Virus record (IMG/VR): IMGVR_UViG_2778261218_000003
Length of the DNA: 12,147 nt
Source: a virus
Taxonomy: Duplodnaviria; Heunggongvirae; Uroviricota; Caudoviricetes
Strand: one strand, 5' to 3'
The notes beneath the pieces were generated by a model. It saw only the letters and a program-made list of their open reading frames with translations, made no database searches and was not told the DNA's origin. Positions 1,314-12,147 of the stretch are shown here, in pieces. The position numbers were made by a program, and so were the translations under genes. Position 1 is the stretch's first letter. Every line of letters starts with the position of its first letter.

Positions 1314-3794
1314 ATGTTGAGAATGACCCCACTTGCATCAGCAATCGTAGCGTTATTGCTCGGCATTGAAGCTTATGCAGCTGAAGAAACCTTTGATACC
1401 CATTTTATGATAGGTGGAATGAAAGACCAGCAGGTTGCAAATATTCGTCTTGATGATAATCAACCCTTACCGGGGCAGTATGACATCGATATTTATGTCA
1501 ATAAGCAATGGCGCGGGAAATATGAGATTATTGTTAAAGACAACCCGCAAGAAACATGTTTATCAATAGAAGTTATCAAGCGGTTAGGCATTAATAGCGA
1601 TAACTTCGCCAGCGGTAAGCAATGTTTAACATTTGAGCAACTTGTTCAGGGTGGGAGCTATACCTGGGATATCGGGGTTTTTCGTCTCGATTTCAGTGTC
1701 CCGCAGGCCTGGGTGGAAGAACTGGAAAGTGGCTATGTTCCACCGGAAAACTGGGAGCGGGGTATTAATGCGTTTTATACCTCTTATTATGTGAGTCAGT
1801 ATTACAGTGACTATAAAGCGTCGGGTAATAGTAAGAGTACATATGTACGTTTTAACAGCGGGTTAAATTTACTGGGGTGGCAACTGCATTCTGATGCCAG
1901 TTTCAGTAAAACAAATAACAATCCAGGGGTGTGGAAAAGCAATACCCTGTATCTGGAACGTGGATTTGCCCAACTTCTCGGCACGCTTCGCGTGGGTGAT
2001 ATGTACACATCAAGCGATATTTTTGATTCTGTTCGCTTCAGCGGTGTGCGGTTGTTTCGTGATATGCAGATGTTGCCTAACTCGAAACAAAATTTTACGC
2101 CACGGGTGCAGGGGATTGCTCAGAGTAATGCGCTGGTAACTATTGAACAGAACGGTTTTGTGGTTTATCAGAAAGAGGTTCCTCCTGGCCCGTTCGCGAT
2201 TACAGATTTGCAGTTGGCCGGTGGTGGAGCAGATCTTGATGTCAGCGTGAAAGAGGCGGACGGCTCGGTAACCACCTATCTGGTGCCTTATGCAGCAGTG
2301 CCAAATATGCTGCAACCCGGCGTATCGAAATATGATTTTGCGGCGGGTCGTAGCCATATTGAAGGGGCGAGCAAACAAAGTGATTTTGTCCAGGCGGGTT
2401 ATCAGTATGGTTTTAATAATTTATTGACGCTGTATGGTGGCTCGATGGTCGCGAATAATTATTACGCGTTTACTTTGGGGACTGGCTGGAATACACGCAT
2501 TGGTGCCATTTCCGTCGATGCCACGAAGTCGCATAGTAAACAAGACAACGGCGATGTGTTTGACGGGCAAAGTTATCAAATTGCCTACAACAAATTTGTG
2601 AGCCAAACGTCGACGCGTTTTGGTCTGGCGGCCTGGCGTTATTCATCGCGTGATTACCGGACATTTAATGATCACGTTTGGGCAAACAATAAAGATAATT
2701 ATCGCCGTGATGAAAACGATGTCTATGACATTGCCGATTATTACCAGAACGATTTTGGCCGTAAAAATAGCTTCTCTGCCAATATGAGCCAGTCATTGCC
2801 AGAAGGCTGGGGGTCTGTGTCCTTAAGTACGTTATGGCGAGATTACTGGGGGCGTAGCGGCAGCAGTAAGGATTATCAGTTGAGTTATTCCAATAACTGG
2901 CGGCGGATAAGCTATATCCTCGCGGCAAGCCAGGCGTATGACGAGAATCATCATGAAGAGAAACGTTTTAATATTTTTATATCGATTCCCTTTGATTGGG
3001 GTGATGACGTTACGACGCCTCGTCGGCAAATATATATGTCTAACTCAACGACGTTTGATGATCAGGGGTTTGCCTCAAATAATACGGGATTATCAGGAAC
3101 CGTTGGAAGCCGGGATCAGTTTAACTATGGGGTCAACCTGAGTTATCAGAATCAGGGAAATGAAACGACAGCTGGGGCGAATTTGACCTGGAACGCGCCG
3201 GTTGCGACAGTGAATGGCAGTTATAGTCAGTCGAGTACTTATCGACAGGCTGGAGCCAGTGTTTCAGGGGGCATTGTCGCCTGGTCGGGGGGCGTTAATC
3301 TGGCGAACCGTCTTTCCGAAACGTTTGCTGTGATGAATGCGCCAGGAATTAAAGATGCTTATGTCAATGGGCAAAAATATCGCACAACAAACCGTAATGG
3401 AGTGGTGGTATACGACGGAATGACACCTTATCGGGAAAATCACCTGATGCTGGATGTGTCGCAAAGCGATAGCGAAGCAGAATTACGTGGCAACCGGAAA
3501 ATTGCCGCCCCTTATCGCGGCGCGGTTGTACTGGTTAATTTTGATACCGATCAGCGCAAGCCCTGGTTTATTAAAGCGTTAAGAGCGGATGGTCAACCAT
3601 TAATGTTTGGTTATGAAGTCAATGATATCCATGGTCATAATATTGGCGTTGTCGGTCAGGGAAGCCAGTTATTTATTCGCACCAATGAAGTACCGCCATC
3701 GGTTAATGTGGCAATTGATAAGCAACAAGGACTTTCATGCACAATCACCTTCGGTAAAGAGATTGATGAAAGTAGAAATTATATTTGCCAGTAA
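1314..3794 (+). CDS. yehB: Outer-membrane fimbrial usher protein
   Basis: About 826-aa ORF, the size of usher proteins, sitting between chaperone and adhesin genes. I prefer the ATG at 1314 (RBS AGGAG at 1303-1307) over the track start at 1299; it gives a signal-peptide-like N-terminus MLRMTPLASAIVALLLGIEAYA. Confidence 0.85.
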   Translation: MLRMTPLASAIVALLLGIEAYAAEETFDTHFMIGGMKDQQVANIRLDDNQPLPGQYDIDIYVNKQWRGKYEIIVKDNPQETCLSIEVIKRLGINSDNFASGKQCLTFEQLVQGGSYTWDIGVFRLDFSVPQAWVEELESGYVPPENWERGINAFYTSYYVSQYYSDYKASGNSKSTYVRFNSGLNLLGWQLHSDASFSKTNNNPGVWKSNTLYLERGFAQLLGTLRVGDMYTSSDIFDSVRFSGVRLFRDMQMLPNSKQNFTPRVQGIAQSNALVTIEQNGFVVYQKEVPPGPFAITDLQLAGGGADLDVSVKEADGSVTTYLVPYAAVPNMLQPGVSKYDFAAGRSHIEGASKQSDFVQAGYQYGFNNLLTLYGGSMVANNYYAFTLGTGWNTRIGAISVDATKSHSKQDNGDVFDGQSYQIAYNKFVSQTSTRFGLAAWRYSSRDYRTFNDHVWANNKDNYRRDENDVYDIADYYQNDFGRKNSFSANMSQSLPEGWGSVSLSTLWRDYWGRSGSSKDYQLSYSNNWRRISYILAASQAYDENHHEEKRFNIFISIPFDWGDDVTTPRRQIYMSNSTTFDDQGFASNNTGLSGTVGSRDQFNYGVNLSYQNQGNETTAGANLTWNAPVATVNGSYSQSSTYRQAGASVSGGIVAWSGGVNLANRLSETFAVMNAPGIKDAYVNGQKYRTTNRNGVVVYDGMTPYRENHLMLDVSQSDSEAELRGNRKIAAPYRGAVVLVNFDTDQRKPWFIKALRADGQPLMFGYEVNDIHGHNIGVVGQGSQLFIRTNEVPPSVNVAIDKQQGLSCTITFGKEIDESRNYICQ

Positions 3795-6427: not shown

Positions 6428-6700
6428 ATGTCTCATACAATCCGTGATAAACAGAAACTGAAAGCGCGTGCCAGTAAGATTCAGGGCCAGGTCGTGGCGC
6501 TCAAGAAAATGCTCGACGAGCCGCACGAATGCGCTGCAGTTTTACAACAGATTGCTGCTATCCGTGGCGCGGTAAACGGTCTGATGCGGGAAGTGATTAA
6601 AGGTCATCTGACGGAACACATCGTTCACCAGGGGGATGAGCTAAAACGTGAAGAAGATCTGGATGTCGTTCTGAAGGTGCTGGATTCATATATCAAATAA
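6428..6700 (+). CDS. rcnR: Ni/Co-responsive transcriptional repressor RcnR (CsoR/RcnR family)
   Basis: 90-aa ORF ([38 protein letters not shown]...), the size and sequence of RcnR, divergent from rcnA. Confidence 0.9.
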
Positions 6701-6789
6701 TTTATTAACGCGATTGTAAAACTGCCGTTTTTCCTCGTTTACAACGCGTGCGCTGGACATTACCATCCTCCTCTGCGATTTATCATCGC

Positions 6790-6841
6790 AACCAAACGAC
6801 TCGGGGTGCCCTTCTGCGTGAAGGCTGAGAAATACCCGTAT
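6790..6841 (+). promoter_or_regulatory. Truncated TPP riboswitch (5' half of the thiM leader aptamer)
   Basis: AACCAAACGACTCGGGGTGCCCTTCTGCGTGAAGGCTGAGAAATACCCGTAT matches my recollection of the E. coli thiM TPP aptamer through P2, P3 and the CUGAGA junction. The expected continuation (CACCTGATCTGGATAATGCCAGCG...) is absent; from 6842 the sequence is unrelated and AT-rich. Confidence 0.7.
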
Positions 6842-6970
6842 TTTCTCATTTAGTGTTTTTTGTGGTTCTGGGTTGTTCGTGGCTGTTTGTGTATGTATTT
6901 GATATTTAAATAATTATTGTATTTTCTTGTTTGTTGTTGTTCGTTGCTGTTCGTAGGGCTTCAACGAAAT

Positions 6971-6994
6971 GTGTGGTCAGTTGTGTGGTCAGTT
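6971..6994 (+). repeat. Perfect tandem 12-bp direct repeat upstream of int (putative arm-type recombinase or IHF binding sites)
   Basis: GTGTGGTCAGTT at 6971-6982 and again at 6983-6994, with further GTTCGT-containing iterations at 6871-6882 and 6933-6957, all between the island junction and the int start. Confidence 0.5.
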
Positions 6995-7029
6995 TTTTGA
7001 GGCTGGAGGACTGAAAAGAGGATCTGATA

Positions 7030-8250
7030 GTGGGAAAAGCACTAAACAAACTGAGCGATTCGACGTTAAAAAAATTGGCGGCTGTCCAGGCAGAAAAAGA
7101 GCGTTTTTACTCCGACGGGGGCGGGCTGGAGATTAAACACTCAAAGGGCGGCAAATTAACCTGGTATTTCCGGTACCGAACGGGAGGCCGTGAGGTTGCC
7201 GCAGAGCGGTTAAAGCTGGGGGCTTACCCTGAATTGTCGCTGAAAGCTGCAAGGGAAAAACGCGCACAGTGCCGGGCATGGCTGGCTGAGGGTAAAAACC
7301 CCCGTTATGAGTTGTGCGCCACAGTACAGGAAGCGCTAAAACCCGTTACGGTGAAGGAGGCGATTAACTACTGGCTGGATGAATATGCGAAGGATAACCG
7401 CAAAGACTACATAAAGCTGGTGCAACGTATGGATAAGCACATCATTTGCCATATAGGGGCAATTCCTCTTGATAAATGCGATACAAGGCAGTGGATCGCA
7501 TGTTTTGACCGTGTACGAAAAAAAGCACCAGTAGCAGCGGGGCACGTCATGCAAACCTGCAAACAGGCGCTAAAGTTCTGCCGCAGGAGGCGCTACGCGT
7601 TCAGTAATGCCCTGGACGATTTGATCGTCAGCGATGTGGGTAAGAGAGCAGAAATTCGCGAGAGGGTGCACAGCAACAGCGAATTAAAGGAAATTCTACG
7701 TGCTATTGATAGTGATGTGTTCGCGCCTTACTACAGCGCGTTAATGCGCTTGCTGATTGTGTTCGGGTGCAGAACGGCAGAGGTCAGACTTTCAGAGATC
7801 AAAGAATGGGATCTGAAAGAAATGTTGTGGACAGTACCAAGAGAGCACAGCAAAACGAAGGTAACGATATTCAGGCCAATCCCCGATGGCATTTTGCCGT
7901 TCATTCAGAAGCTGGTGGATCAGAACCGGCATACAGGGTTATTGCTCGGAGAACTGAAAAAAGATACCACGGTAGCGCAATATGGGCGAAATGCGCATAA
8001 GCGGCTTAAGCAGGAACACTGGACGCTGCATGACTTCCGGCACACGTTTACAACGATGCTGAACGATTTAGGTGTCGATCCGCATATCGTTGAGCACATC
8101 ACAGCGCATCAGATGCCCGGTCAGCAAAAAACCTATAACCATTCACGCTATTTACAGGCGAAGCGGGACGCGTTGAATCTGTGGGTTGAGCGTCTCGATG
8201 TGCTGGCTGGAAATCATGAAAATATTATTATGCTAAAGGTGGCTAAATGA
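7030..8250 (+). CDS. int: Tyrosine site-specific integrase, P4/CP4-57 family
   Basis: 406-aa ORF with a GTG start and RBS AAGAGGA at 7014-7020. The N-terminus is P4-int-like (GGLEIKHSKGGKLTWYFRYRTGGREV...GAYPELSLKAAR). The C-terminal catalytic region carries HDFRHTF (H-x-x-R) and a downstream Tyr (KTYNHSRY). Confidence 0.9.
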   Translation: MGKALNKLSDSTLKKLAAVQAEKERFYSDGGGLEIKHSKGGKLTWYFRYRTGGREVAAERLKLGAYPELSLKAAREKRAQCRAWLAEGKNPRYELCATVQEALKPVTVKEAINYWLDEYAKDNRKDYIKLVQRMDKHIICHIGAIPLDKCDTRQWIACFDRVRKKAPVAAGHVMQTCKQALKFCRRRRYAFSNALDDLIVSDVGKRAEIRERVHSNSELKEILRAIDSDVFAPYYSALMRLLIVFGCRTAEVRLSEIKEWDLKEMLWTVPREHSKTKVTIFRPIPDGILPFIQKLVDQNRHTGLLLGELKKDTTVAQYGRNAHKRLKQEHWTLHDFRHTFTTMLNDLGVDPHIVEHITAHQMPGQQKTYNHSRYLQAKRDALNLWVERLDVLAGNHENIIMLKVAK

Positions 8251-9020
8251 AATTACCAAAAAGACTCTATTATCCGCTACCTGAAGCAGCAGAAAAGTTA
8301 AGCTGTGCAATAAAAGATCTTTATCATTACGCATATATAGGTGCTCTTGATATTTCTGTATATATACCAAAAATTGATGCTAAAAAATTCAATTTATCAT
8401 TATGTCATTTTATCAATGGTTGTAATGAGGAAGAATTAATAAAATATCCGTTCAATGATGAATCTGTTGTTTTTGGCAGTAATTTTACAGTTGGTTTAAC
8501 TGGTGACTCTGAATTTTTAGATAGTGCTATTATTGGTCCGGTAGGGAATTCTATAAAATGTTATTATGTTAGCAGTTTGGAAGGGTTTTATTATACTCCA
8601 GCAAATGTTTTTGCTGATGCTGAATTTAGCATGAGACAATATATAAAATGTTCTCATCTTACGAATAGGTATGGTGATGATAATCTCATGTATGTTTTTT
8701 GTAAGGGTGGTTATGAGTTTGATGTTAACTATTTGTGTGTGATGGCTAGTGATTTAGATAATATAAAAAATACGGGAGACTTCCCGAAGCTAACAGAAGA
8801 TAGCCCAAAAGCATCGTCAAAAAGGAATGAGGTTATTTACTCTTTAATTAAACTTATTCCAGAAATGGGTGATGTAGACCTGGACACGGAATCATTACCT
8901 AAAATAGCGGATTTAATTGATTCTATAGCTGCATCCAGAGGGATAGAATTTCCCAAAACACACTGGCAGACATGGCAAAAGTATTTGGGGCGTGAACCTC
9001 AACAAAAACGTAAAAAGTGA
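8247..9020 (+). CDS. Hypothetical protein, AT-rich orphan cargo gene, no family recognised
   Basis: 257-aa ORF whose ATG overlaps the int stop (ATGA), with RBS AAGGTGG at 8235-8241. It is strongly AT-rich compared with both flanks (by eye, not computed). I recognise no catalytic motif. The N-terminus (KRLYYPLPEAAEKLSCAIKDLYHY) may be a small helix-turn-helix-like segment. Confidence 0.6.
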   Translation: MKLPKRLYYPLPEAAEKLSCAIKDLYHYAYIGALDISVYIPKIDAKKFNLSLCHFINGCNEEELIKYPFNDESVVFGSNFTVGLTGDSEFLDSAIIGPVGNSIKCYYVSSLEGFYYTPANVFADAEFSMRQYIKCSHLTNRYGDDNLMYVFCKGGYEFDVNYLCVMASDLDNIKNTGDFPKLTEDSPKASSKRNEVIYSLIKLIPEMGDVDLDTESLPKIADLIDSIAASRGIEFPKTHWQTWQKYLGREPQQKRKK

Positions 9021-9047
9021 TATCACGTGCTGATAGTGTGATATCAC
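9017..9047 (+). promoter_or_regulatory. Two copies of the perfect 10-bp palindrome GTGATATCAC, 21 bp apart (operator-like)
   Basis: GTGATATCAC at 9017-9026 and 9038-9047, each self-complementary, with centres two helical turns apart. They sit in the short spacer upstream of alpA. Confidence 0.45.
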
Positions 9048-9077
9048 ACACACCACATTTCATCACCGCCTACAATC

Positions 9078-9109
9078 GCCCTCGTTCTATAACGTTCGAG
9101 GGCTTTTTT
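9078..9109 (+). terminator. Terminator-like hairpin abutting the alpA start codon
   Basis: Stem GCCCTCG (9078-9084) / CGAGGGC (9097-9103), 12-nt loop, then TTTTTT (9104-9109) running directly into the alpA ATG at 9110. Confidence 0.45.
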
Positions 9110-9334
9110 ATGAACCAATACAAACAATCCCAATTACCAGCAGATCGAGTAATCCGTGAGGATGAATGTCGAAACTTAACAGGTGTTAGCCGTACCACAC
9201 GCTACGAACTGGAGAAAAAAGGGAATTTCCCGTCACGCCGTAATCTGGGTGGTCGTTCAGTAGGTTGGCTGCTTTCCGAAGTTATGGAATGGGTGCAAAG
9301 CCGTGATCGCGTTAATTCAGGTAAGGCAGCGTAG
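9110..9334 (+). CDS. alpA: AlpA-family phage regulatory protein (small winged-HTH excisionase/activator)
   Basis: The track ORF (9017-9334) is trimmed to the ATG at 9110, giving 74 aa. The protein (MNQYKQSQLPADRVIREDECRNLTGVSRTTRYELEKKGNFPSRRNLGGRSVGWLLSEVMEWV) has the AlpA/Vis-type pattern and sits downstream of int as in CP4-57-like islands. Confidence 0.8.
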   Translation: MNQYKQSQLPADRVIREDECRNLTGVSRTTRYELEKKGNFPSRRNLGGRSVGWLLSEVMEWVQSRDRVNSGKAA

Positions 9335-9342
9335 GGGGAATA

Positions 9343-9471
9343 ATGGCACATAAAACAAAGGCGACCGTAAGAGGTCGCCAGTGGTACAGCACTAAACTTG
9401 AGCGCGTTCAGAATACCAATTTACTAACATCCCGCCAATGCGCTAACGGTATCCACCAGCAATCAACTTAA
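9343..9471 (+). CDS. Possible 42-aa small ORF between alpA and the ant-like gene
   Basis: Found by manual translation: MAHKTKATVRGRQWYSTKLERVQNTNLLTSRQCANGIHQQST, with RBS AGGGGG 4 nt upstream of the ATG at 9343. It contains hairpin copy 1. Coding status is uncertain. Confidence 0.25.
   Translation: MAHKTKATVRGRQWYSTKLERVQNTNLLTSRQCANGIHQQST
9349..9384 (+). repeat. Conserved hairpin element, copy 1
   Basis: ATAAAACAAAGGCGACC-GTAAGA-GGTCGCCAGTGG, with a 7-bp stem GGCGACC/GGTCGCC. Copy 2 at 10583-10619 has identical stem and flanks but a different loop. Confidence 0.6.
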
Positions 9472-9490
9472 TTTTATAGCAGGAGTTTTT

Positions 9491-10291
9491 ATGAAACAGC
9501 GAAAAACGCCCGTACAGGGGCAGGGCTTCGTTCGGCCTGAAAACCAGAATCTGCAAAATTTCGGCGAAATTATCCCGGTTATTTCCGGCATTATTGGCGG
9601 GTGTGAAACCAATATTGTTAGCGCCAGAGCGTTGCATAAGGCGTTAGGTGTAGGTCGCGTTTTCCGTTCGTGGATCAAGGGGCGCATTGAAGAATACGGC
9701 TTCACGGAAGGCGTGGATTATGAGGTTGTTGAATATTTGAGCCGACCCGATCCGGTGAGCGCAAAATCTCGCCAGCAAACAGCTCTTGAGTACATCATTA
9801 CCGTGAACATGGCGAAAGAACTGGCGATGGTCGAACGCACCGAACAGGGCCGCGCCGTTCGCCAGTACTTCATCAAATGCGAGGAGGAGCTACACAAGGT
9901 AGCGCCAGTGCGTTCCGCAGTGTTACGCCGGGAACTGAAAGCCCGTATCACAGTTGCCAGCTACTTTAAGCCAATGTGTGCCGCGCTGGAGGCGTACCGG
10001 GCTGAACTGGGTAAAAACACTCTACAGCACCACTACACCACGGAAGCCAATATGCTGGCGCGTATCGTGCTGGGCGGTATGACTGCCAGACAGTGGGCAC
10101 TGGCGAACGGCATTACAGGCGAACCACGCGACCACATGAGCACGTTGCAGCTTGAGCACCTTTCTTACCTTGAGCAGAGCAATATCACGCTGATTGAGTT
10201 AGGCCAGGGCTACCACCAGCGGAAAGCTGAATTAATTCGTCTTTCGCAGCGTTGGTTAGCCCGTCGCATGGAGGAAAACAGCCATGTGTAA
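9491..10291 (+). CDS. Phage antirepressor-like protein (AntA N-terminal region plus KilAC/ANT-type region)
   Basis: 266-aa ORF with RBS AGGAG at 9481-9485. The N-terminal segment (NIVSARALHKALGVGRVFRSWIKGRIEEYGFTEGVDY) resembles the AntA domain. The central segment (TALEYIITVNMAKELAMVERTEQGRAVRQYFIKCEEEL) resembles the KilAC domain. Both are from memory of those families. Confidence 0.7.
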   Translation: MKQRKTPVQGQGFVRPENQNLQNFGEIIPVISGIIGGCETNIVSARALHKALGVGRVFRSWIKGRIEEYGFTEGVDYEVVEYLSRPDPVSAKSRQQTALEYIITVNMAKELAMVERTEQGRAVRQYFIKCEEELHKVAPVRSAVLRRELKARITVASYFKPMCAALEAYRAELGKNTLQHHYTTEANMLARIVLGGMTARQWALANGITGEPRDHMSTLQLEHLSYLEQSNITLIELGQGYHQRKAELIRLSQRWLARRMEENSHV

Positions 10292-10726
10292 CGCTCTGAC
10301 CGTTACAAAAAGAGAAAGCGCCCCGTTGCCGGAGCGCCTTTGTGAACGAATAGCCTACTGCGCCATATTGCTTACTGTCTACGAGGCAGATTATAGCGTT
10401 GTGGTCGCACAGAGTGAAGGCGCTGATCACCGTTACTACAGCACACCAGAAATGCAGAATATTTTGCTGCAAAATGTCGTTGGTCACGCTGTCCGGAAAG
10501 CAAAAAATTTTGCTGGTGGCGCGACTGATGCGATTTTGTCAGGTAGCCAGGTGCTGATCAATCTGATGTCTGGTTTCGTTCTGGATAAAACAAAGGCGAC
10601 CGCAGAGGGTCGCCAGTGGGTATTACGGCAAATCAAACCTGAATGCATCGCCAACAATGCTGCATTTGTGGCTGGTGGGCAAATCTTTAGTGGAATTTTT
10701 TCCCTGTTGCCTGCACTGGGTAATGG
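10284..10726 (+). CDS. Hypothetical ORF coupled to the ant-like gene; 3' end undefined
   Basis: ATG at 10284 overlaps the ant stop (ATGTGTAA) and is preceded by GGAGG. The first ~150 codons look protein-like, but the frame has no stop until 12080 and runs antisense through three minus-strand genes. The true extent is unknown; it may be a truncated or fused gene remnant. The end coordinate is arbitrary. Confidence 0.3.
10583..10619 (+). repeat. Conserved hairpin element, copy 2
   Basis: ATAAAACAAAGGCGACC-GCAGAG-GGTCGCCAGTGG, same stem and flanks as copy 1, with loop substitutions only. Confidence 0.6.
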
Positions 10727-10909
10727 TTACTTGTATCGCGTATTCCTGCACAAAACAGGACTGCTTTTTTTGATGAAATCCTCAAGCAAAAAACACTCTG
10801 TTGATGCTCTTGGTAATTCTCTGGTGGAAGGATGGGGTTTTATCCCCCATTTTCGTTTACGTTCTTCCAGAAAGGAGGTGAGTATATCTAGTTTCTGTGC
10901 GTCCATCAT
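10727..10909 (-). CDS. Small hypothetical protein (60 aa), distal gene of the minus-strand operon
   Basis: ORF MMDAQKLDILTSFLEERKRKWGIKPHPSTRELPRASTECF... with a weak RBS (AAGAG). Its position in a same-strand array after the RHH gene supports it modestly. Confidence 0.3.
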   Translation of the reverse strand: MMDAQKLDILTSFLEERKRKWGIKPHPSTRELPRASTECFLLEDFIKKSSPVLCRNTRYK

Positions 10910-10966
10910 TTTTCTCTTGGATACTGCTTTGTGCCATGGATCCTCACACCACGGCGCTGATAGTGG

Positions 10967-11146
10967 TTATTTCTGCTCTTCAACATCACCATGTCGTGAT
11001 GTTTTCCAGGTATATAGCCCCATTTTTGTGCGCTTGTGCGTTTTAAGAAATTGCTCAAGGTGGAAGGTTTTAACCTTTCCCTGTTCGGTTTCTTGTGCAA
11101 TTTCTTTCGCCATTTGCTGGGCTAAAAAATCTTTTAATTTAGGCAT
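10967..11146 (-). CDS. Small hypothetical protein (59 aa), second gene of the minus-strand operon
   Basis: Below the ORF-track size cutoff; found by manual translation: MPKLKDFLAQQMAKEIAQETEQGKVKTFHLEQFLKTHKRTKMGLYTWKTSRHGDVEEQK. RBS AGGGGG lies 7 nt upstream and it has balanced, charged, helical composition. It starts 70 nt after the RHH gene stop. Confidence 0.45.
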   Translation of the reverse strand: MPKLKDFLAQQMAKEIAQETEQGKVKTFHLEQFLKTHKRTKMGLYTWKTSRHGDVEEQK

Positions 11147-11215
11147 GGTTCGCCCCCTGCTTACAGTCTGGCGCTCGAGTTCCTTAGGCTCTGGCGCGAA
11201 TGGTGATTATTCTGG

Positions 11216-11515
11216 CTACCCTTTGGCCTTGCGCCGCTGGAGTTCTTCACGAGCAACGGAAACAAGCTGCTCTATATTTTCGGCGAGTTCGACCCCTATT
11301 TTTTCCATTTGTTCCAGCGCATCGAGCGAAGAAACCAGGGGATTTTCTCCGCTTCCTTCTGCCTGGCGGCGGGCGATCTCACCGCGTACAGCCGTAACTA
11401 TAAAATTCGCTTTAGTTTCCCCTGGCTGTAGGGATGCCTCAATGCCACTCACTACTTCATGTGGAAATCTGGCATTCAGTTGCTGTGACTTATTGTTAAC
11501 AGAACTCGTGGACAT
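11216..11515 (-). CDS. Ribbon-helix-helix (Arc/MetJ/CopG-like) DNA-binding protein, possibly YlcI/YnfO-like
   Basis: The track ORF (11216-11692) is trimmed to the ATG at 11515, which has a strong RBS (GGAGGTG). The 99-aa protein (MSTSSVNNKSQQLNARFPHEVVSGIEASLQPGETKANFIVTAVRGEIARR...) has the beta-strand then helix pattern of RHH regulators at its N-terminus. It faces an operator-rich divergent region. Confidence 0.65.
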   Translation of the reverse strand: MSTSSVNNKSQQLNARFPHEVVSGIEASLQPGETKANFIVTAVRGEIARRQAEGSGENPLVSSLDALEQMEKIGVELAENIEQLVSVAREELQRRKAKG

Positions 11516-11558
11516 GTTTGCACCTCCGATTAATAACGGGATGCAGTGTAATACAAAA

Positions 11559-11614
11559 GTGAATACCAAAAAAGACTTGAAATGGTATTCACCAAAATGT
11601 AATCTGAATACCAC
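11559..11614 (+). promoter_or_regulatory. Operator-like repeats in the divergent control region
   Basis: Perfect 10-bp inverted repeat GTGAATACCA (11559-11568) / TGGTATTCAC (11583-11592) with a 14-bp spacer, plus a third half-site TGAATACCAC at 11605-11614. They lie between the RHH gene start (11515, minus) and the plus-strand gene at 11715. Confidence 0.5.
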
Positions 11615-11714
11615 AAGGGCTGATACATGCAATTCAGCAATTGAAACGACGAAGCCCCGCACTGTTGGAGCAGTAACGGGGCTTCTAACCAAACCGTTAA
11701 CAGGAGTAACGATT

Positions 11715-12080
11715 ATGGCTGGAACACAGCATACCCAAACTCACCCTAAATTTATATACACCTTCTTGGCGGTGCACCGTGATTGCATAGCTGACGGTAA
11801 AAACACTGTACACGTAGCCGCCGATACGCTGGTTGATGCCTGCGAGATGCTCAATGACATGGGCTATATCTCGGCAACATGGAAAGGGCGCGAAGAAAAC
11901 ACGCTGTTTATTCAGAAATGCGAGAACAATTTTATCTGGCGTTTTATCGCCCTGAGTACAGCACAACCGCGCGTGATTCACATCGAGGCCACCAGCGAAC
12001 AGGAAGCCCGCCAGCAATCTCCTGATGGCTGCGTGATGGTATTCGCTGCCCGTATTCGCCAGGAGGTGGAACATGTGTAA
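11715..12080 (+). CDS. Hypothetical protein (121 aa), first gene of the rightward operon
   Basis: ATG at 11715 with RBS AGGAG at 11702-11706 (MAGTQHTQTHPKFIYTFLAVHRDCIADGKNTVHVAAD...). It is in frame with, and forms the 3' part of, the 598-aa track ORF. I prefer it to the overlapping minus ORF 11697-12116, which is Cys/His-rich and low-complexity. Confidence 0.55.
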   Translation: MAGTQHTQTHPKFIYTFLAVHRDCIADGKNTVHVAADTLVDACEMLNDMGYISATWKGREENTLFIQKCENNFIWRFIALSTAQPRVIHIEATSEQEARQQSPDGCVMVFAARIRQEVEHV

Positions 12081-12147
12081 TGCAACATGGCCTGATGCAG
12101 CGGTAGACGCTATCAAAACGCTGATGGATTCACTTATTGAGATTTCT
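12073..12147 (+). CDS. Hypothetical protein, 5' fragment (continues beyond window)
   Basis: ATG at 12073 overlaps the upstream stop (ATGTGTAA) and follows RBS AGGAGGTGG at 12061-12069. Only 25 codons are visible (MCNATWPDAAVDAIKTLMDSLIEIS). Confidence 0.3.
   Translation, partial: MCNATWPDAAVDAIKTLMDSLIEIS

Follow-up and report, generated by a model that had tools for sequence, protein, structure and literature searches.

What does an AT-rich gene of 257 codons do between the integrase gene and alpA of a satellite island? The question is raised by a stretch of 12,147 nucleotides, catalogued as viral record IMGVR_UViG_2778261218_000003 in IMG/VR and called here, at its full length, the window, in which such a gene (hereafter gene X) lies between the tyrosine integrase gene int and alpA. 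An earlier note on this DNA had taken it for an orphan, and for a candidate defence or abortive-infection function carried as cargo by a P4/CP4-57-type element. We consider X most likely to be a regulator of alpA, and not a defence gene, because it lies consistently just upstream of alpA and beside matched palindromes; to the general proposal, drawn from sequence patterns, that its product binds this palindrome pair and controls alpA, we give about even chances.

Gene X occupies positions 8247–9020 of the plus strand and encodes a putative modular regulator of an unnamed satellite-island family. As the earlier note had described, its ATG (8247–8249) overlaps the TGA stop codon of int (8248–8250) in an ATGA, and it has a ribosome-binding site of its own, a Shine-Dalgarno-like AAGGTGG on the plus strand at 8236–8242, within the 3' end of int and 4 nt before the ATG; from the overlapping stop and start codons we infer that X is made together with the integrase. 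The shift to AT-rich composition was borne out as well, with a GC content of 0.30–0.32 over 8251–8850 versus 0.48–0.55 in int and 0.45–0.49 in alpA. The ratio of nonsynonymous to synonymous substitution rates (dN/dS) is 0.18 for X against an O157 allele of 96% identity (int giving 0.08), and the reading frame is kept in homologues down to ∼25–30% identity, so that X is a real gene under purifying selection. The exact X protein is encoded by 62 contigs; for a sister allele the number is at least 1000.

No known family could be assigned to X, in agreement with the first reading of its translation: searches of Pfam, NCBIfam and PADLOC gave no match at E ≤ 1, and the sole match in PHROGs was phrog_13283 (function unassigned; E = 0.011; residues 1–56 of X). 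These four collections held nothing useful for ten further family members either. The label of orphan does not hold, however: when 1.84 billion cluster representatives were searched with a profile, 394 representatives of 50%-identity clusters fell into the family of X at E ≤ 1e-3, 51 of them at E ≤ 1e-30, and its relatives are labelled "hypothetical protein" in every source. The family profile found 0 matches among PDB sequences at E ≤ 10, and tblastn against 50,697 deposited phage records found no homologue of X. A scan of a genome-contig collection with the family alignment yielded 2 loci only, the same collection scanned with the integrase yielded nothing, and a metagenome scan yielded 7 loci, mostly near-duplicates. 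The 56-sequence family alignment was too diverse for pattern scanning; a family hidden Markov model (HMM) was built and run over all fetched loci to locate members. In the literature we found no paper describing gene X, its accession or the palindrome, and the family, the fold of its middle domain and the combination of gene and operators in one cassette appear to be undescribed in the searchable literature.

The position of the family is nearly constant. All but one of the members located by the HMM lie between an integrase of ∼407 residues and alpA, and in all but one locus (∼25 distinct family proteins) alpA follows within ∼130 nt. The place upstream of alpA is kept in E. coli (at two attachment sites), Klebsiella, Serratia, Providencia and in viral and metagenomic contigs, and it is kept despite differing attachment sites, differing capsid modules (lambda gpE-type, HK97-type or a protease-capsid fusion) and differing primases (DUF927, DUF5906 or D5-type). 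The most distant members no longer overlap int, from which a gap of 40–70 nt or an extra gene separates them, and alpA still lies 90–130 nt downstream; because adjacency to alpA survives where the int overlap does not, alpA is the tightest partner of X. The lone exception is a distant family member in Limnobaculum (locus L010, 4001–6160), with neither int nor alpA in its neighbourhood. The gene behind it encodes a 417-residue protein with an RCRIVH motif (RxxxxH, HEPN-like), for which neither Pfam nor PADLOC gave a match.

The interval that X occupies is exchangeable. When the rcnR site of the window was compared with four other islands, DNA identity was 95–100% through int, collapsed from ∼8200 to ∼9075 and returned to 82–90% at alpA; behind integrases that are 95–98% identical stood a 53%-identical member of the X family, a DUF6387 gene of 331 residues, a DUF6387 gene of 284 residues, or no gene. 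This survey shows gene turnover at one and the same chromosomal site and supports the int-alpA interval as a replaceable cassette. The variable cargo slot of the earlier note therefore stands as far as swapping is concerned (X family, DUF6387 or empty), but not as a holder of ordinary cargo, since the X family is tied to alpA and to palindromes of its own. Whatever the slot gene, it is rich in AT and has its start on the int stop codon, and the exchanged cassette (∼8200–9075) carries X together with the upstream half of the alpA promoter region. DUF6387 (PF19924; slot genes at 3038–4033 in L011, 1420–2415 in L015 and 4218–5072 in L016) thus shares with X its slot, its 4-nt overlap with the int stop codon and its AT-richness, and is about as frequent in E. 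coli, close X alleles being present in 47 complete genomes and two DUF6387 alleles in 53. It differs from X in being unrelated in sequence (the X family HMM does not find it) and in having no palindrome pair downstream; its cassettes bring instead a −35-like hexamer, TTGCTT or TTGCAC, 16–17 bp upstream of the −10-like hexamer. DUF6387 is possibly an alternative regulatory cassette.

An exchangeable slot would also suit a single-gene anti-phage defence or abortive-infection system carried as satellite cargo, a reading that we consider quite unlikely for X. Satellites are known from the literature to carry immune genes, the slot is swapped among near-identical islands, X is AT-rich like horizontally acquired cargo, its central domain (see below) is hypervariable, as in phage-sensing immune proteins, and the L010 member stands outside any island beside the RxxxxH-motif protein. 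Yet nothing in the analysis points to defence, and the family is essentially confined to the place upstream of alpA, whereas defence genes also occur in defence islands and prophages. The failure of X to match PADLOC at E ≤ 1 was repeated at E ≤ 0.1 for three of five further family members from other loci (the L010 member, P0044 and P0033), for both DUF6387 slot proteins and for P0091, and P0071 and P0133 gave weak PADLOC matches only (E 0.004–0.05). The alignments and the predicted fold of X show no effector-like domain and no enzymatic, toxin-like or catalytic-looking conserved residues, and palindromes that co-vary with the gene at a fixed distance from alpA would have no role in defence.

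These palindromes begin at the very end of the gene. Palindrome 1 (GTGATATCAC, 9017–9026) contains the TGA stop codon of X, and palindrome 2 (the same GTGATATCAC, 9038–9047) is centred 67.5 nt before the ATG of alpA; both are perfect over 10 bp, and together they form the pattern GTGATATCAC-N11-GTGATATCAC at 9017–9047, 21 bp from centre to centre. At ≤1 mismatch, GTGATATCAC has two matches in the 12-kb window versus 0.31 expected. A GTGATATCAC-like pair was present in every sampled locus whose family member has the C-terminus that we term type 1 (...T[WL]xxYL[GE]R), the sample comprising E. coli, Klebsiella, Serratia, Providencia and sets of viral contigs. In these loci, (i) site 1 begins 3 nt before the last base of the stop codon in almost all cases (L030 and L051 are shifted by 5 nt), (ii) the sites are spaced 20–22 bp apart, with a spacer of unconserved sequence, and (iii) site 2 is centred 67.5 nt from the alpA ATG in nearly all cases. 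By contrast, the pair is absent from 10 of 10 loci with DUF6387 or an empty slot, where int is 95–98% identical and AlpA is 86–88% identical (84–86% in palindrome-bearing loci). Since the pair is absent where Int and AlpA are similar but the slot differs, the palindromes belong with X and not with Int or AlpA, and the idea that they are sites of AlpA or Int was rejected on the same grounds. They were also rejected as CRP sites, for which the half-site spacing, as read from the sequence, is wrong. A search of IMG/VR for the exact 31-nt pattern returned 11 contigs, in eight of which it lies at the end of a family gene beside alpA; two others are chance products of a GDIT peptide repeat, and the last is L057, considered below.

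Family members with other C-terminal modules are accompanied by a different pair, GGGAATTCCC, GGAAATTTCC or GGAATATTCC, of the GGAAWWTTCC type. Their proteins end in ...VELDYVGIPTP..KK, ...PLEISKSAMEISKK, ...SDWLKNVDIDFFP or ...ILGEYMKI, and a spacing of 21 bp recurs wherever the two sites can both be made out. The second site of this class is centred 66.5–68.5 nt from the alpA ATG in L009, L036 and L041, a distance kept even where the sites fall within the coding tail, and 80.5 nt from it in L045. In one member, whose helix resembles type 1 (HHQSIAKYFG), the sites read GTGAAATCAC and GTGATTTCAC. Because the type of the C-terminal module changes together with the sequence of the palindromes, this module is likely their reader. 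The N-terminal domain was judged a less likely reader, as no column of its winged helix separates the two palindrome classes.

The anatomy of X was derived from family alignments and from an AlphaFold 2 (AF2) model with a predicted local distance difference test score of 85.7. Residues 1–44 (8247–8378, plus strand), which carry the motif RLYYPLPEAAxKLGCxxxDxxH conserved throughout the family, are predicted with high confidence to form a winged helix of the Xis/MerR type, in keeping with the N-terminal DNA-binding segment suspected beforehand. Residues 45–185 (8379–8801, plus strand) form a central β-rich domain that is hypervariable and swappable, conserved only at a GFFY (G113/F114), at E126 and at an LCV motif; in some members it is replaced by a larger, unrelated domain with both ends of the protein kept, and between X and its homologue in L014 identity is 84% in the N-terminus and 97–98% in the C-terminus but 27–45% in the middle. 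Residues 186–257 (8802–9017, plus strand) make up the type-1 C-terminal module, ...KRNEVIYSLIKLIPE...GIEFPKTHWQTWQKYLGR...KRKK, with predicted helices at 187–203, 217–230 and 240–246. The fold search that the earlier note had called for was informative at one end of the protein only: the N-terminus is closest to excisionases and recombination directionality factors (RDFs), namely Pukovnik Xis, RdfS, TorI and an AlpA-type excisionase, whereas neither the β-rich middle nor the three-helix C-terminus had a match in PDB40 or BFVD. Two short proteins, P0077 and P0079 (73 and 68 residues), consist of the C-terminal module alone (MGESPKTLAKK...TWAKYLGRT) and may be remnants or stand-alone versions of it. 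The island EcCIMP1 has a small open reading frame between int and alpA that is different from X (PMC11773190), and this frame might be of the same kind as P0077 and P0079.

With excisionases and RDFs as its best fold matches, X could be an accessory protein of the integrase whose Xis-like N-terminus steers Int toward excision or integration, a role that would also explain the translational coupling, the 4-nt overlap with int being conserved across Enterobacterales. We nonetheless regard this as distinctly improbable. At 257 residues and with three modules, X is far above the size of known RDFs, which are small single-domain proteins of ∼55–120 residues with sites in the att arms; the only conserved sites linked to X are found before alpA rather than in att arms, ∼2 kb away from the island's int-proximal end. 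Moreover, with the same int, islands function whether the slot is empty or filled by DUF6387, distant family members lose the int overlap and keep their adjacency to alpA, and alpA and int suffice for excision in the phage-inducible chromosomal islands (PICIs) that have been studied. The part of an alpA regulator, as we propose for X, fits on several counts: (i) the protein has domains of DNA-binding type, (ii) dyad sites of its own stand at fixed promoter-proximal positions, (iii) gene and sites are exchanged as one cassette, and (iv) the middle domain evolves like a specificity determinant.

How the sites might act depends on the region between palindrome 2 and alpA (9110–9334, plus strand; 74 residues; PF05930, E 1e-16). 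On the plus strand at 9071–9076, 23 nt after palindrome 2, the sequence reads TACAAT, a −10-like hexamer of a putative alpA promoter; the same 23-nt spacing leads to hexamers of the TAAAT/TAGAAT type in other loci, and the hexamer belongs to a conserved block on the alpA side. No −35 consensus is found at 9048–9053, and X cassettes as a group come without one. On this promoter, transcription would start near 9083, and the palindromes would be centred at about −61.5 and −40.5. The alpA ATG is immediately preceded by a plus-strand hairpin (GCCCTCG...CGAGGGC followed by a T6 run, 9078–9109; ΔG −14.8 kcal/mol, z −4.2), the 3' arm of which holds the Shine-Dalgarno sequence of alpA, GAGGG. Compensatory changes occur in 6 of its 9 pairs across 12 loci; the hairpin accompanies every cassette type, and where the stems differ, in distant loci, the Shine-Dalgarno sequence is nevertheless covered. 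It could insulate alpA from read-through of the int-X transcript, which would be stopped or kept untranslated there, or it could be a target of helper-phage antitermination. Since the putative start near 9083 lies inside the 5' arm, transcripts from the alpA promoter itself would escape the hairpin.

We propose a working model. In PICIs of Gram-negative bacteria, AlpA acts as the activator that starts the island cycle and activates its own promoter, and whether any island-encoded repressor exists was left unclear (PMC6092414). X, as a dimer of dimers, would bind the two dyad sites that begin at its own stop codon and, bound there, would gate transcription of alpA, whose product would, in the presence of an active helper phage, set off excision, replication and packaging. 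Reception of the signal would likely fall to the swappable central β domain, and the most plausible signal would be a helper-phage protein, by analogy with Stl of staphylococcal islands. In the version to which we commit, X would keep alpA silent for as long as the island stays integrated, and relief of the repression would come from a helper-phage factor; life-cycle logic favours this version, X being co-expressed with int, as is stl in the staphylococcal pathogenicity islands (SaPIs), and insulated from alpA by the hairpin. Almost as likely is an activator version, favoured by the geometry of the sites and the missing −35, in which X at −40.5 would replace the −35 element once triggered.

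Several points weigh against control of alpA by X through the palindromes. The sites at −40.5 and −61.5, without a −35, look activator-like and sit badly with the repressor version in particular. A simple promoter scan did not call the TACAAT site, the promoter and the transcription start both being putative. The C-terminal module has no recognised match to a DNA-binding fold, and, as gene and sites are adjacent on the DNA, their co-variation could reflect linkage alone. Since many PICIs carry DUF6387 or an empty slot in place of X, X cannot take part in alpA control everywhere. Further, the two sites are mutually complementary and could pair as an RNA hairpin, and in L057 (2165–2195), a viral contig with no family gene, alpA or related int in the 12 kb examined, an identical pair, GGTGATATCAC-N-GGTGATATCACC, stands ahead of a T-run and looks like a terminator, 33 nt after a P22-antirepressor-like gene (ORF6N and P22_AR_C).

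These last two points are also the case for X being functionally unrelated to the palindromes, which would then either pair in RNA as a hairpin that stabilises the 3' end of the int-X transcript or terminates it, or be bound by a host or helper-phage factor. L044, a locus compatible with both readings, fits pairing best, and the gene before the pair in L057 is unrelated to X. We hold this alternative to be unlikely, and a plain RNA hairpin was judged less likely because each arm is itself palindromic and the distance to alpA is fixed. The arms of a hairpin need not be self-palindromic, but in both sequence classes a perfect or near-perfect 10-bp palindrome is found at site 1 of every tabulated locus and at site 2 of most. 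In L002 and L034, symmetric double changes preserve the dyad and break the pairing between the sites, and in L041 site 2 has degenerated with site 1 still perfect. In the islands the pair has no T-run behind it and stands at a fixed distance from the start of alpA, and its sequence switches with the C-terminal module of X. Palindromic single sites and dyad-keeping double changes point to a dimeric protein, with one strong and one weak site, more than to an RNA hairpin.

For X as a regulator, the nearest functional analogue is Stl/Rpr of SaPIs and other Gram-positive PICIs, while the nearest folds to its N-terminus are those of the Xis/AlpA/Cox/Apl group and of MerR; X should be filed in none of these groups, because it fails the defining sequence or architecture tests of each. 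Stl/Rpr genes, like X, lie beside int, on the int side of the island control region; they combine a DNA-binding module with a variable partner-binding part, as is proposed for X; and their operators (putative in the case of X) lie between the regulator gene and the genes of the island cycle, the order int-X-palindromes-alpA being conserved across genera. Helper-phage proteins are reported to bind the variable part of Stl and switch the island on (PMC6695447, PMC9638917). Unlike Stl/Rpr, with which it has no sequence or fold relationship, X has no detectable XRE/Cro-type helix-turn-helix (HTH_3); the Stl/Rpr gene is divergent from the operon that it controls, whereas X is co-directional with alpA; and Stl/Rpr targets the whole lytic operon, whereas the target of X would be the promoter of an activator gene, alpA.

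AlpA/Vis, like P2 Cox and 186 Apl, are Xis-fold proteins that double as transcription factors. They are, however, single-domain proteins of 60–100 residues, to which X adds two domains; direct repeats are their usual targets, whereas the sites linked to X are dyad-symmetric. X has no sequence similarity to them: neither Pfam AlpA (PF05930) nor HTH_17 (PF12728) matched X at E ≤ 1, and hhalign of the X family alignment against an AlpA alignment gave a probability of 0.3%. MerR proteins have a long dimerisation helix after the winged helix, where X has β strands and no coiled coil, and they bind between −35 and −10 with a 19–20-bp spacer, whereas the X-linked sites lie upstream of the putative −35 position; Pfam MerR gave no match to X.

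The surroundings of the gene identify its carrier. The window is E. coli chromosome, in which a yeh-type fimbrial operon, rcnB, rcnA and rcnR are followed by the island directly after rcnR; no tRNA gene was found in the window. The integrase gene (7030–8250, plus strand; 406 residues) matches Arm-DNA-bind_3 (E 2e-18) and Phage_integrase (E 6e-17). The window ends at 12147 and covers int, X, alpA, an antA-like gene, an Icd-like gene and a YlcI/YnfO gene; the island was typed by a relative in NZ_CP018250 (∼15.4 kb; X 96% identical), which continues with a DUF927 primase, SSB, PerC, a major capsid protein, a prohead protease, a portal, connectors, an HNH protein and both terminase subunits. The same gene set characterises capsid-forming PICIs, of which EcCIEDL933 is the type example (10.1101/2022.09.08.507074). 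Such islands, ∼15 kb long, combine int, alpA and pri-rep with capsid, portal, protease, connector, HNH and terminase genes of their own, and lack tail and lysis genes. Judged by this relative, the carrier of X is probably a PICI of the capsid-forming, EcCIEDL933 type and not the P4/CP4-57-type element first supposed.

Upstream of int lie an imperfect 52-nt direct repeat (6839–6890 and 6903–6954) and a perfect tandem duplication of TGTGTGGTCAGT (6970–6993); the repeats of 6839–6993 may be a candidate attL, arm-type integrase sites or the int promoter region. Downstream of alpA, the antA-like gene (9491–10291) has an AntA domain (E 3e-23), and a match to PDC-S22, a PADLOC candidate family, covers its C-terminal third (E 2e-8). 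An otherwise related O157-type island lacks the gene, which makes the place after alpA a second variable region, as has been described (10.1101/2025.02.11.637232). The Icd-like gene (named after annotation of related E. coli records) and the YlcI/YnfO gene (a library match) follow further downstream. A 598-residue frame listed mechanically at 10284–12080 is probably no gene, as related islands annotate short Icd-like genes and a YlcI/YnfO gene on the opposite strand there. A search of 6600–12147 against Rfam gave nothing credible.

A wider reading of the family can be offered tentatively, as a possibility that we would not yet favour: X may be a helper-phage sensor seated on the alpA promoter, with a central domain that sets which phages induce the island and with DUF6387 as an alternative sensor cassette. 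It would then be the missing link in switching on Gram-negative phage-inducible islands, and its family a satellite master regulator of a new class, one that combines two modules of DNA-binding type with a novel fold. If control of alpA by X is wrong, the strict linkage of gene and palindromes still needs an explanation. The family is a concrete, testable candidate, with defined DNA sites and natural variants of its central domain; the same island backbone with DUF6387 or an empty slot supplies natural controls, and the family is present in EcCIEDL933-type islands already in experimental use. If control of alpA by X is right, it would explain helper specificity and could help to predict which phages mobilise which islands.

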